Assembly (NCBI GenBank): GCA_001818495.1
Contig: MHKS01000004.1
Span: 84,657-148,656 of the forward strand
Length of the DNA stretch: 64,000 nt
Direction: 5' to 3'
From: Candidatus Komeilibacteria bacterium RIFOXYD1_FULL_37_29
GTDB taxonomy: Bacteria; Patescibacteriota; Patescibacteriia; UBA1558; GWA2-36-10
The notes beneath the pieces were generated by a model. It made no database searches and was not told the DNA's origin. It saw nothing but the letters and a program-made list of their open reading frames with translations. Made by a program: the position numbers and the translations under genes. Shown one piece after another: positions 50,450-53,219 of this stretch (the stretch's first letter is position 1; each line of letters starts with the position of its first letter).

Positions 50450-50603
50450 CTCTTTTAGCCTATTTGTAAAGGGCTATTTTTTGTTGTCTGATTAATTCTT
50501 GATTTATTTAAGTCAATAATGTAAGGTATTGTTGATAAATACTGTATATAGATTTCTTGTACTTTGAAAATAACGTGAAATGAAAATATAGGAGAAAATT
50601 CAC

Positions 50604-51569
50604 ATGATTCTGCAAGGTATAGACTTTGGTAATGTCTTTCTTGCATCCGGAGCATTGAACTTTTTTGGTGAGGGTTGGCCGTATCACAGGCTGTATAAAA
50701 TTATGCCAGGATTTGATTTTTCTGGGGCCACTTTTATCAGCAAGACAACGACCCTGTATCAAAGAACGGGGAATATGCCGTTAACGGCTAATTTACAACC
50801 AAAACAGTTGATGCCGGTTTGCATTAAGGTATATCCATTCAGGGGAGTGGTGTTAAACTCTGTTGGTTTAAGTGGTCCAGGTGTTCAAGTTTTATTAAAC
50901 TTAAACCAATGGCAGAAAATTCAAGAGCCTTTCTTATTATCTTTTATGGCAGTAGATACTACGCCACAAAAACGTGAAGAGGAGATAAGAATCTTCACAG
51001 ATTTATTAAGGCAGGCCTTGTCGGATTTTCTAACACCAATTGGTCTGGAAATAAATATTTCTTGTCCCAATACTCAGCACAATCCTAACGAGCTTATCAA
51101 GGAGGTGGTTTCTCAATTGGAGATAGCTTCTAAATTGAGAATTCCTTTGATGGTCAAGTTAAATGTCTTGGCATCTCCACATGCTGTGAAAGAGATTTGC
51201 GATTCAGGGTTGTGTGATGGAATAGAATGCTCAAATACTATTCCTTGGGGGCAATTACCAGACCTAGTTCACTGGAATGATCTTTTTGGCGTTACTATTT
51301 CGCCTTTGGCTAAATTGGGTGGCGGTGGTTTGTCTGGTTGGCCATTAGTAGAAATTGTAACTGACTGGATCAAGCGGGTCAGAGATACTGGCATTACTAT
51401 CCCCATCATTGCGGGTGGAGGCATAGGCTGTCGGAGAGATTATCGGCAGGGTATACTTGCTCATCAAGAAGCCGGCGCTAATGGAATATCTATCGGAACT
51501 GCAATGATGATTCGTCCTTGGCGAATTCGAAAGATTATTGATTTCGGTAATAAGGTTTTTGGAAACTAG
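50604..51569 (+). CDS. pyrD: Dihydroorotate dehydrogenase, class 1 (Cys active site)
   Basis: NSVGLSGPG, NISCPNT (catalytic Cys), GGGLSGWPL, IIAGGGIG. 321 aa. Confidence 0.7.
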   Translation: MILQGIDFGNVFLASGALNFFGEGWPYHRLYKIMPGFDFSGATFISKTTTLYQRTGNMPLTANLQPKQLMPVCIKVYPFRGVVLNSVGLSGPGVQVLLNLNQWQKIQEPFLLSFMAVDTTPQKREEEIRIFTDLLRQALSDFLTPIGLEINISCPNTQHNPNELIKEVVSQLEIASKLRIPLMVKLNVLASPHAVKEICDSGLCDGIECSNTIPWGQLPDLVHWNDLFGVTISPLAKLGGGGLSGWPLVEIVTDWIKRVRDTGITIPIIAGGGIGCRRDYRQGILAHQEAGANGISIGTAMMIRPWRIRKIIDFGNKVFGN

Positions 51570-51599
51570 AAACTCAAAGCTCAGAAAGGAGTAATTATT

Positions 51600-52358
51600 A
51601 TGAGCTTACATGTTGCAGAACGGTTGATCGTAGCCGCTGATTATTCACCCAAGAAGTTCGGTGGAATAGCAGGCGTGGAAAAGCAGGTTTTGGTTTTGGC
51701 CAAAGATTTGCAGGGGACCGGAGTTTACATCAAGGTAAACTCCATTTTACGGGCGGTCGGTTATTCTCTGATCGTCAAGCTTCACGACCTCGGTGTGAAA
51801 GTGTTTGCCGATCTTAAACTCATCGATATTTCCAATACGATGGGTACAGATGGTGAACTGTTGGCCGAGTTTAAGCCGGACATTTTGACAGTGATGTGTT
51901 GTGCTGGCATCGACGGCATGCACGCTGTTCAGAAAGTTATCGGTGGTACCACCGAGGTTCTCGGCGTGACGGTTTTGACCAGCCTCAATGAGGAAGAGTG
52001 CCAGAGCATTTTCACCTGTTCAACCAAAGCCGGTGTTCTTCGGTTCTCCCGTATGGCTCAGTTGGCCAATCTTGGCGGACTGATCCTATCACCTCAAGAG
52101 GTAGAAGTGGTCAGTAAGAGATTTGAGCTGACACTCAGTCTCAATACTCCTGGTATTCGGCCAATTTGGTCGCTTGTCGAAGGAGACGACCAGAGTCGGG
52201 TTTTGACTCCTCAGAAAGCCATTGCCAACGGCGCCAAGCGTATTGTGATGGGAAGACCCATCATCGAAGCGGGCCCCAACGATAAGGGCCTACCTCAGAG
52301 TCCACGAGAAGCTGTGGATCTCACTCTCAAAGAAATTGAAGCAGGACTTAGTTCCTAG
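51600..52358 (+). CDS. pyrF: Orotidine 5'-phosphate decarboxylase
   Basis: LIVAADY...IKVN...FADLKLIDISNTM (DxKxxDI motif)...PGIRP...IVMGRPI. Confidence 0.8.
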   Translation: MSLHVAERLIVAADYSPKKFGGIAGVEKQVLVLAKDLQGTGVYIKVNSILRAVGYSLIVKLHDLGVKVFADLKLIDISNTMGTDGELLAEFKPDILTVMCCAGIDGMHAVQKVIGGTTEVLGVTVLTSLNEEECQSIFTCSTKAGVLRFSRMAQLANLGGLILSPQEVEVVSKRFELTLSLNTPGIRPIWSLVEGDDQSRVLTPQKAIANGAKRIVMGRPIIEAGPNDKGLPQSPREAVDLTLKEIEAGLSS

Positions 52359-52371
52359 AAGGAGATCGACT

Positions 52372-53079
52372 ATGAATTTAAACGATCTGTTGGGTTTTAA
52401 ACCAGCGGATTTCAGAAACAGAGATGTATCTGTTGAAGAAATGCTAAGTTGGTTTGATGCCTGCGACGCTGCTTGGGTGCATAGTGGTGATTCAAGAGAT
52501 CCACATGCTGAGCTTACTTCAGGTAAGTGCAGCAATGGATTTTTTGACTGTCTGCGGGTTCTCAAGTATGTGAAGCTTTCAGAGATTCTGGCCAATCAGT
52601 TGGCGCGTAAGATCCGATCTACTATCGGTGATCAGAATGTGGATTGGGTGATTGCCTCACCAATGGCTGGGATCACCTTTGGTCATGATGTCGCCAGAGC
52701 GCTCGGCGCTCAGGTTTTCATGTTCACGGAGAAGCATCCGGATGATAAGGATGCTATGCTCTGGAACCGGCTGGCAATTCCCGAAGGAGCGTCAGTTCTT
52801 CAGATTGAAGAACTGACTACTACGGCGAAGACTCTCAATGCTGTTCAGGCAGCAGTCAATGCCGGTAATCCGAATCCTGTCAACTGGTTGCCATTTATTG
52901 GTATCCTTGTTCATCGGCCGCCTCAGTTACCGGTCGATCATTATGGTGACAGAAAGGTCATCACTCTGATCGAAACGGAAGTCTGGGCCGTGGATCCAGA
53001 CAAATGTCAGCTGTGTGCTAGCGGGTCGGTAAGATACAAGCCGAAAACTCACTGGAAACAGTTGACCGGCAAGGCGTAA
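52372..53079 (+). CDS. pyrE: Type I phosphoribosyltransferase, putative orotate PRTase
   Basis: PRPP-binding motif VLQIEELTTTAKTL. Adjacent to pyrD/pyrF. The start was moved to the ATG at 52372, which is preceded by AAGGAG. Confidence 0.5.
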   Translation: MNLNDLLGFKPADFRNRDVSVEEMLSWFDACDAAWVHSGDSRDPHAELTSGKCSNGFFDCLRVLKYVKLSEILANQLARKIRSTIGDQNVDWVIASPMAGITFGHDVARALGAQVFMFTEKHPDDKDAMLWNRLAIPEGASVLQIEELTTTAKTLNAVQAAVNAGNPNPVNWLPFIGILVHRPPQLPVDHYGDRKVITLIETEVWAVDPDKCQLCASGSVRYKPKTHWKQLTGKA

Positions 53080-53103
53080 TATACGCATGCAATTCAAAAA
53101 AGA

Positions 53104-53161
53104 GGGGAGGCATCACAACCTCTCCTTTTCTTTATAATATCGCCTCAAAGGCGATTTTTTG
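53104..53161 (+). terminator. Two tandem intrinsic terminators closing the island
   Basis: GGGGAGG/CCTCTCC stem plus T run, then ATCGCC/GGCGAT stem plus TTTTTT. Confidence 0.55.
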
Positions 53162-53219
53162 GTATAATAAAGGTAGGTTAATTAACACTCGTTTTTACGA
53201 GTTAAGAAAGGGAAAAAAT

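Follow-up and report, generated by a model that had tools for sequence, protein, structure and literature searches.

The locus examined here raises the question of whether three consecutive pyrimidine genes next to a tRNA-Asp gene were acquired together as one island, as the original prediction had it, or whether the block has a composite history. The window, i.e. the whole stretch of DNA analysed, covers 64 kb of a Komeilibacteria genome, and the features that bear on the question are the following:

50252-50282, + strand: 31-nt exact direct repeat, copy 1 (9 nt of leader followed by nt 1-22 of tRNA-Asp)
50364-50394, + strand: 31-nt repeat, copy 2 (leader and 5' 22 nt of tRNA-Asp)
50373-50449, + strand: intact tRNA-Asp (GTC; Rfam tRNA, 70.9 bits)
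50484-50603, + strand: promoter / 5'-UTR region of the operon, including AGGAG at 50590-50594
50604-51569, + strand: pyrD-like gene, predicted DHOD-like flavoenzyme of 321 aa (ORF and Pfam DHO_dh)
51586-51591, + strand: AAGGAG Shine-Dalgarno site of pyrF (from sequence)
51600-52358, + strand: pyrF, predicted OMP decarboxylase of 252 aa (ORF and OMPdecase), first gene of a putatively circulating pair
52359-52364, + strand: AAGGAG Shine-Dalgarno site of the PRTase gene (from sequence), kept in relatives
52372-53079, + strand: pyrE-like gene, predicted OPRT-fold type I PRTase of 235 aa, second gene of the putatively circulating pair
53100-53137, + strand: intrinsic terminator 1, an 11-bp stem (53100-53129) followed by a T-rich tail
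53139-53161, + strand: intrinsic terminator 2, a 7-bp stem (53139-53155) followed by TTTTTT

The reading favoured by the analysis, with a probability of about 0.68, is that of a mosaic operon: a working UMP trio in which the pyrF-PRTase pair would come from a G+C-richer donor within the Patescibacteria (CPR), while the pyrD-like gene would belong to a CPR-wide lineage.

The trio is predicted to form a single operon, with one promoter region, three Shine-Dalgarno sites and a double terminator. Spacers measure 30 nt (pyrD-like/pyrF) and 13 nt (pyrF/PRTase), the start of the PRTase gene being the ATG at 52372 and not the TTG at 52336. Several structural claims of the original prediction held at this level: the first ATG lies 154 nt from the end of tRNA-Asp (about 150 nt had been given); the strong AAGGAG/AGGAG sites said to be rare in host genes precede each of the three start codons, with AGGAG 7-9 nt upstream, and AGGAG or GGAGG occurs within 22 nt upstream of just 3/60 other window genes; and two tandem terminators, each stem followed by a T run, close the block. 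Conservation of the 50484-50603 region was far above that of synonymous sites across three species (alignment of the window, L097 and L094; pS of adjacent genes 0.45-0.6). A riboswitch or leader RNA was also considered and dropped, as an Rfam search of 49500-54000 returned only the tRNA and one sub-threshold antisense match.

The three genes had been proposed to encode a class-1 DHOD with a catalytic Cys, an OMP decarboxylase and an OPRT-like type I PRTase, and profile, motif and fold comparisons agree with all three assignments. The pyrF protein matched OMPdecase (PF00215; 112.7 bits, cut-off 27), passed TIGR01740 (94.3 bits, cut-off 92.3) and fell below NF001273 (144.5 bits, cut-off 193). 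Alignment with PDB 3ldv and 3tr2 covers its motifs D-L-K-L-I-D-I-S-N-T (DxKxxD), Y-I-K-V, T-P-G-I-R-P and M-G-R-P-I; the catalytic DxKxxD, the Lys upstream of it and both phosphate-binding motifs (PGIR and GRP) are all intact.

The pyrD-like protein, named 'hypothetical' by NCBI, matched Pfam DHO_dh (PF01180) with 61 bits (cut-off 27) but failed every NCBIfam DHOD equivalog, the best NCBIfam match being NF005574 (66 bits, cut-off 269). The top 50 PDB matches of its AF2 model (pLDDT 92.1) were all DHODs. With class 1 DHODs (1A, L. lactis DHODA and trypanosomatid DHODH; 1B, PyrD, PDB 1ep1/1ep2) it shares the TIM-barrel FMN fold (TM 0.65-0.72), a length of about 320 aa without N-terminal membrane domain, the Cys base in N-x-S-C-P-N and conserved Lys/Asn ligands. 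The catalytic-Cys motif N151-I-S-C154-P-N156 aligns to NISCPN of 1ep1, and all 15 family members compared have K47, N85, N151, S153, C154, P155, N156, K185 and N211; we take their roles (FMN/orotate Lys/Asn ligands, Cys base) to be those of L. lactis DHODA. Unlike class 1 enzymes, the family carries the motifs ASGxLNFFGEGW and SNTIPWGxLPxxIxW...SPL, and the protein is only 18-24% identical to solved DHODs, equidistant from classes 1A, 1B and 2. It departs from class 2 in that the base is Cys154, not Ser, and in that the protein begins at the barrel, without an N-terminal quinone/membrane domain. It also differs from class 1B, as no PyrK partner (FAD / 2Fe-2S) was found among the window ORFs or among recurrent neighbours at about 80 loci. 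Because PyrK and a quinone domain are both missing, the electron acceptor is probably soluble, by analogy with class 1A. The sole recurrent neighbour of the family across the approximately 80 loci was PyrC, a dimeric type adjoining the DHOD gene in 42 of them (TIGR00856, 315 bits, cut-off 293; 180 bits to PDB 4lfy); a weak Pfam match had suggested Amidohydro_2 for this neighbour, which NCBIfam and PDB matches instead identify as a dimeric-type dihydroorotase. PyrF/PyrE genes adjoin the family in the window and at L007, L013, L014, L015 and L016, and identity to the pyrD-like protein reaches at most 56% outside the Komeilibacteria clade. On this sequence and model evidence, the pyrD-like gene is predicted to encode a divergent class-1-like DHOD with a Cys base, from a family widespread in CPR.

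The PRTase matched Pribosyltran (PF00156; 29.8 bits, cut-off 26.3), its best NCBIfam match being pyrE_Therm (TIGR01367), below cut-off (50.8 bits, cut-off 150.25). Foldseek ranks 1-27 for its AF2 model (pLDDT 95.1) were all OPRTs (4paw, E 5.6e-13). The Thermus/Helicobacter-type OPRT (TIGR01367; PDB 4paw, HP1257) came first both in sequence and in structure (40 bits; TMt 0.78-0.80), and the likeness extends to the hood motif L-T-S-G-x-x-S-N, to the PRPP loop V-L-Q-I-E146-E147-L-T-T-T (E146, E147, T150 and T151 invariant) and to the location beside, or fused to, OMP decarboxylase. E120 and K121 are invariant within F-T-E-K-x-P-x-x-K, the candidate flexible-loop region. In contrast to that type, the family has about 35 extra N-terminal residues and a conserved Cx6C...CxxC motif, and appears largely confined to CPR. 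It adjoins OMPdecase, of two types, in the window and at L089, L091, L095, L016, L099, L101 and L104, with L103, where the PRTase stands alone, as the exception. Four OMPdecase-PRTase fusions of 466-486 aa (P0419, P0423, P0427 and P0484), all with the OMPdc domain preceding the PRT domain, recall eukaryotic UMPS; human UMPS has the reverse domain order. Fold and motifs thus mark the protein as a type I PRTase with the fold of OPRTs, its family being nearly restricted to CPR. Counting against the functional assignments, all three proteins of the trio score below most NCBIfam equivalog cut-offs (DHOD 66/269, OPRT 50.8/150, pyrF 144.5/193 for NF001273).

Together, the products would complete UMP synthesis: the DHOD (FMN, Cys base) would oxidise dihydroorotate to orotate, the OPRT-like PRTase would convert orotate and PRPP into OMP, and the OMP decarboxylase would convert OMP into UMP. 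The co-transcription of last-step UMP genes resembles that of bacterial pyr operons, although the window supplies just three of the steps: no pyrB, pyrC or carAB was seen among the ORFs scanned in the 64 kb. That nothing beyond the final three steps is encoded holds within the window, and the accompanying suggestion that dihydroorotate or orotate is scavenged may be correct; the 42 loci where the DHOD family adjoins a genuine pyrC belong to related CPR.

Composition divides the operon. Background GC3 was 0.317±0.043, with a maximum of 0.411 (60 window genes), compared to 0.526 for pyrF (G+C 0.498, z=4.9), 0.479 for the PRTase gene (G+C 0.484, z=3.8) and 0.370 for the pyrD-like gene (z=1.2). 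Synonymous-codon log-likelihoods followed the same order (z of -5.3, -3.7 and -2.2, respectively), and pyrF and the PRTase gene were the two most atypical genes among 63. The G+C maximum in 1-kb windows (0.47-0.49) spans 51501-53000, the rest of the window lying at about 0.30-0.43, and the fine-scale step starts at about 51250-51600, not at 50580. In four species GC3 jumps at the pyrD/pyrF boundary from 0.35-0.37 to 0.48-0.60, the pyrD-like gene being host-like in the window genome and in three relatives. Its small G+C excess (+0.04) was dropped as evidence of transfer, and is normal for the family, since DHOD-family genes average 0.045 above their flanks (79 loci). The compositional island is therefore the pyrF-PRTase pair, with the pyrD-like gene outside it. 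All three genes had been described as G+C-richer than their surroundings, with different synonymous codons; this stands for the pair, whereas the pyrD-like gene is not distinctly G+C-richer and is only mildly atypical in its codons.

Sequence comparisons likewise suggest different histories for the two parts. The pair is 75-82% identical to copies at L089, L091 and L095, which lie in unrelated contexts without a DHOD gene, as does the pair at L101. Housekeeping proteins, a baseline of few genes (S18, SSB and GatA) from single loci compared by identity, are far less similar: comparison of the L091 organism with the window gave 47% for S18 and 44% for SSB, and that of the L099 organism gave 53% for GatA compared to 69% for PyrF. 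At L016 the pair-family proteins are 62-63% identical and the DHOD 50%. Transfer is also favoured by the GC3 of the pair, which keeps to about 0.45-0.55 at loci with local backgrounds of 0.28-0.37 as well as 0.59, and by direct repeats on either side of it at L091 (104 nt) and L089 (50 nt). As the pair remains 75-82% identical where S18 and SSB reach merely 44-47%, and as the source-named close homologues are all Patescibacteria except one labelled Humimicrobiaceae, the sequences point to transfer of the pair within CPR rather than from another phylum. A scan of viral contigs with the PRTase found no relative, and a phage origin was dropped. The pair may thus be a two-gene module circulating horizontally among distant Patescibacteria, whereas the pyrD-like gene would represent a CPR-wide DHOD lineage whose divergence among CPR copies is about that of housekeeping genes. 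Horizontal acquisition, proposed for the entire block, is accordingly retained for the pair, on composition and identity to distant CPR, but not for the host-like pyrD-like gene.

The suggestion that the insertion may be old fits what is seen in relatives. In three related species the trio occupies the same position beside tRNA-Asp, the order tRNA-Asp, trio, DUF378, EamA-RFK, VanZ, L20 being the same in L093/L094 and L097, and dS was 0.94-1.23 for the pair compared to 1.1-1.7 for flanking genes. The shared site and a dS of about 1 indicate that the event is old. No empty site was found, the three related species all carrying the trio, and a search of metagenome contigs for more relatives, with the flanking EamA-riboflavin-kinase as query, returned a single unrelated 23% match. 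A CPR donor richer in G+C would have passed the pair to the common ancestor of the Komeilibacteria clade, earlier than the separation of at least three extant species; from then on the pair would have descended vertically, with only partial amelioration.

Insertion of the whole block at tRNA-Asp as a single island is unlikely. It would explain why all three genes have AGGAG, lacking in 57/60 host genes, and why one tight operon directly follows a tRNA with a partial tRNA-Asp duplication nearby; the same D-F-E order also occurs in Nitrospirae (L007, L013). Because the pyrD-like gene has AGGAG and a codon score of z=-2.2, co-acquisition of the trio keeps some, if low, probability. The sharp GC3 step within the operon in four species, the ordinary G+C excess of the pyrD-like gene and the four loci (L089, L091, L095 and L101) with the pair and no DHOD gene all speak against it, and the Nitrospirae PyrF and PRTase belong to other subfamilies (42% identity; 28 bits). 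In its atypical G+C and codons, its position next to a tRNA gene and its metabolic cargo operon, the locus does resemble tRNA-linked islands and integrative elements, but it is just 1.5-2.5 kb long, is fixed in at least three species and has neither an integrase nor, at its distal limit, a second copy of the tRNA 3' end. No tyrosine or serine recombinase and no transposase was found among the ORFs scanned in the 64-kb window, as originally stated; the 3' end of tRNA-Asp (25 nt, up to 3 mismatches) occurs once, with no downstream copy; and no att-like repeat of at least 16 nt surrounds the trio, only 15-nt matches at chance level. With neither an integrase nor a tRNA 3' repeat, tRNA-Asp as an integration site is unsupported. 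Mediation by the tRNA-linked repeat, also proposed, finds no support in the arrangement of the 31-nt copies, which are 100% identical and spaced by 112 nt and do not bracket the pyr genes, copy 1 lying wholly upstream of tRNA-Asp. That copy (50252-50282) is a scar; a 44-nt G+C-rich segment comes next, and the region has no Rfam match.

It is very improbable that no transfer took place at all, i.e. that the genes are ancestral and vertically inherited, their G+C-rich codons and conservation reflecting selection on expression, mRNA structure or amino-acid composition. The trio and its flanks have co-diverged within the clade, three lineages have kept a high GC3 despite a dS of about 1, and the Shine-Dalgarno sites and 5' region are conserved; selection, instead of incomplete amelioration, could explain this persistence. 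At L101 the pair matches host GC3, as vertical inheritance would allow, but at L016 it is poorer in G+C than the host. Highly expressed genes here do not favour G+C-rich codons, judging by the low GC3 (0.26-0.35) of the window's ribosomal-protein and IF3 genes. The identity gap between the pair and S18/SSB is hard to explain by constraint, the gap between pair and DHOD at L016 also counts against vertical descent, and the genomic context of the pair differs in every lineage. There is little more than an outside chance that the DHOD-like protein and the four-Cys PRTase act on another pyrimidine-like base to make a modified nucleotide. The 'hypothetical' names given by NCBI to two of the three proteins, the scores far under equivalog cut-offs, the PRTase family's own Cx6C...CxxC motif and the equal distance of the DHOD-like protein from all classes would suit such a role. 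Against it stand the invariant orotate/FMN-contacting Lys/Asn residues and SCPN motif, and the linkage to genuine PyrC and to motif-intact OMP decarboxylases, fusions included. The variant in which a paralogous non-UMP trio is also carried by Nitrospirae was dropped for the PyrC linkage and because the pyrF of the Nitrospirae trio passes the equivalog cut-off, which makes that trio look like an ordinary pyr set.

Under the mosaic reading the locus would be a real but fairly ordinary case of gene transfer; that metabolic genes move horizontally and leave a compositional scar is well known. CPR/Patescibacteria are thought to be host-dependent for nucleotides. A recent survey reports a scattered distribution of nucleotide-synthesis genes across Patescibacteria, with de novo pathways missing from 93% of genomes (bioRxiv 10.64898/2026.06.21.733656). 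The locus may offer a concrete case of how such scattered capacity arises, with a two-gene orotate-to-UMP module swapped between distant CPR lineages and joined to a resident DHOD gene. Fold, context and fusions suggest that two families called 'hypothetical' by NCBI in these records supply many CPR genomes with their DHOD and OPRT, and annotation that misses them could understate CPR pyrimidine biosynthetic capacity. A literature search for CPR together with orotate or DHOD found nothing specific.

A bolder extension, advanced only tentatively, is that an 'orotate to UMP' cassette some 1.5 kb in length, without a recombinase, is mobile among ultra-small CPR symbionts, together with new DHOD and four-Cys OPRT subclasses. 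If so, nucleotide-auxotrophic cells could tap host pyrimidine intermediates, and the DHOD lineage (Cys base, no PyrK) and the four-Cys OPRT would be new enzyme subclasses, mainly of CPR, whose electron acceptor or metal site might be unusual. Of the two pairs enclosed by direct repeats, at L091 and L089, one sits in an array of similarly punctuated single-gene units.

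The locus carried three co-oriented genes 3' of a tRNA-Asp, encoding a dihydroorotate dehydrogenase-like protein (DHOD-like; pyrD), an OMPdecase (pyrF) and a PRTase (pyrE-like, pyrE'), with spacers of 30 and 13 nt:

49395-50207, lgt, preceding the 31-nt repeat and tRNA-Asp
50252-50282 and 50364-50394, 31-nt exact direct repeat
50373-50449, tRNA-Asp(GTC)
50604-51569, DHO_dh-family gene (DHOD-like), co-oriented with the next two
51600-52358, OMPdecase gene (pyrF)
52372-53079, PRTase gene
53100-53129 and 53139-53155, two intrinsic terminators 3' of the operon

Beyond the operon were DUF378, an EamA-riboflavin-kinase fusion and VanZ, then L20/L35/IF3 on the opposite strand, and contigs as long as 269 kb also carried the locus. 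The two tandem terminators described in the original prediction were recovered, as was the absence of integrase and transposase genes among the ORFs scanned across the 64-kb window, which also yielded no pyrB, pyrC or carAB.

Compared with 60 background genes of the window (GC3 0.317±0.043, maximum 0.411), pyrF and the PRTase gene had GC3 values of 0.526 (z = 4.9) and 0.479 (z = 3.8) and synonymous-codon log-likelihood z-scores of -5.3 and -3.7, and no other of the 63 genes was as atypical (e.g. CAG, 0.92 vs 0.37; AAG, 0.63 vs 0.20). All three genes had been claimed to be G+C-richer and to use differing synonymous codons, which held for this pair but less clearly for the DHOD gene (GC3 0.370, z = 1.2; log-likelihood z -2.2). 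Similarly, the G+C block is real (0.47-0.49 in 1-kb windows across 51501-53000, against roughly 0.30-0.43 elsewhere in the window), but its step sits near the pyrD/pyrF boundary, and not at 50580, the predicted start of the island. AGGAG was located 7-9 nt 5' of the start codon in all three operon genes; AGGAG or GGAGG occurred within 22 nt upstream in 3/3 operon genes vs 3/60 background genes, in agreement with strong ribosome-binding sites being rare in the host. From the G+C, codon and AGGAG checks, the initial description was therefore accurate, with the compositional boundary as the one exception. The Shine-Dalgarno motif was nearly absent from host genes and the operon's three sites were kept in related species; in a published survey (PMC9297842), the anti-SD motif was missing in about half of Parcubacteria. 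Across 79 loci (L009-L088), CPR genes of the DHOD-like family had a G+C on average 0.045 (sd 0.036) above their flanks, irrespective of host G+C.

The tRNA-Asp followed by the trio was also found in related species (L093/L094 and L097), with DUF378, EamA-RFK, VanZ and L20 likewise downstream in L093/L094. Amino-acid identities to the window were 78-86% for DHOD, 86-87% for PyrF, 82-87% for PRTase, 85% for L20 and 75% for EamA; the pair had a dS of 0.94-1.23, its flanking genes one of 1.1-1.7. Together, the shared order, identities and dS indicate that the arrangement is older than the splits of these species and vertical since, as the earlier suggestion of a possibly old insertion had allowed; a recent acquisition was unsupported, the arrangement predating the split from L093/L094 and L097. 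In these relatives, the pair was richer still (GC3 0.55-0.60), with pyrD at 0.35-0.37.

Outside the clade, identity of the DHOD-like protein did not exceed 56%; PyrF and PRTase had more than 100 cluster homologues in Patescibacteria, with 57-87% identity. The pair occurred without a DHOD gene at three loci (L089, L091, L095), 75-82% identical and in unrelated neighbourhoods, and the L091 organism's S18 and SSB were only 47% and 44% identical to those of the window. In the L099 organism, GatA was 53% identical vs 69% for PyrF. At L016, identities of 62-63% for the pair and 50% for DHOD were about the expectation for vertical descent. Over eight contexts, GC3 of the pair tended to 0.45-0.55, above hosts of 0.28-0.37 and below a host of 0.59, and full amelioration was seen in one Falkowbacteria genome only. 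The pair was bracketed by a 104-nt direct repeat in L091 (7804-7907 and 9534-9637) and by a 50-nt repeat in L089 (GATAAAAATAGCTCTGAAAGTTAGTTTTT; five copies in 7851-11911), which recurs 5' of each of the next three genes. In L089, every copy directly preceded either a gene or the pyrF-PRTase pair, an arrangement resembling a cassette array.

The pair was read as a module moving horizontally within CPR and captured once by a Komeilibacteria ancestor, in which pyrF-pyrE' would have joined a resident or much older pyrD. A donor outside CPR was unsupported. So was tRNA-Asp as the integration site, and with it the proposal that a tRNA-linked repeat mediated the insertion, because the 3' end of the tRNA was unrepeated and the 31-nt repeat sits on the 5' side. 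The unit of this repeat spans 9 nt of leader and the 5'-terminal 22 nt of tRNA-Asp, and its two copies are spaced by 112 nt. Immediately after the first copy comes a 44-nt segment rich in G+C (50283-50326), which had no Rfam match and for which a hairpin is conceivable by eye. Repeat and segment may be an old rearrangement scar at the 5' side of tRNA-Asp. Overall, the original finding is real and its essentials were rightly described, while boundaries and mechanism call for revision.

The DHOD-like protein had a modest Pfam score, far under the NCBIfam equivalogs, and was alignable to L. lactis DHODB PyrD. Its structural model (pLDDT 92) matched DHODs in 50/50 of the best PDB matches, with identities to solved DHODs of 18-24%, the same for classes 1B, 2 and 1A. 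Scanning a single genome per species gave 170 relatives; of the 80 kept, the majority bore names from many CPR lineages, a handful were Nitrospirae, Binatia or Nanoarchaeota, and others had generic or non-CPR labels. Residues K47, N85, N151-x-S-C154-P-N156, K185 and N211 were invariant in the family. In 42 of ~80 loci, the adjoining ~350-aa gene was a genuine dimeric-type dihydroorotase (TIGR00856, 315 bits vs cut-off 293; PDB 4lfy, 180 bits), and no PyrK-like recurrent neighbour was detected among these ~80 loci.

PyrF possessed the DxKxxD, PGIR and GRP motifs and passed the TIGR01740 cut-off. The PRTase best matched Thermus/Helicobacter-type OPRTs, and its model (pLDDT 95) retrieved OPRTs throughout PDB ranks 1-27. 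Its homologues adjoin two distinct OMPdecase types, and OMPdecase-PRTase fusions of 466-486 aa (P0419, P0423, P0427, P0484) have the OMPdecase N-terminal and the PRTase C-terminal. In the family alignment, a Cx6C...CxxC pattern was conserved (C60, C212 and C215 invariant, C53 nearly so), which may be a structural metal site; its first two Cys were absent in the single Nitrospirae OPRT-like sequence inspected (L013). Taken together, the evidence on the three proteins supports a predicted route dihydroorotate -> orotate -> OMP -> UMP.

Putative scavenging of dihydroorotate/orotate is plausible. As 93% of Patescibacteria genomes reportedly have no de novo nucleotide pathways and the genes are phylogenetically scattered (preprint, bioRxiv 10.64898/2026.06.21.733656), this scatter fits a patchy, transferred capacity. 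The locus is an instance of an already known phenomenon; its modest added interest comes from the two-gene module in circulation and from two enzyme subfamilies, mainly from CPR, that are under-annotated.

Upstream of pyrD, 50484-50603 was far better conserved than synonymous sites of neighbouring genes (window, L097 and L094 aligned), its final ~60 nt being nearly identical by eye among the three species; it matched no known RNA family, and its conservation is suggestive of a regulatory role, as a promoter or a 5'-UTR element. A short way 3' of this FMN-dependent DHOD operon, at a position kept in L093/L094, 53548-54816 encoded one 422-aa protein, an EamA-type transporter fused to a riboflavin kinase domain, which may serve riboflavin import and FMN synthesis. 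Pyrimidine metabolism genes were abundant around the operon and not confined to the trio, with deoxynucleotide genes at 58930-63252 (dCMP deaminase, kinase, ThyA, DHFR, an NMN-transporter-like gene and dUTPase/DCD). At 9020-16549, a PrgI-family protein and a TraG/VirB4-like ATPase (type IV secretion-like) were encoded amid several Pfam-less ORFs.
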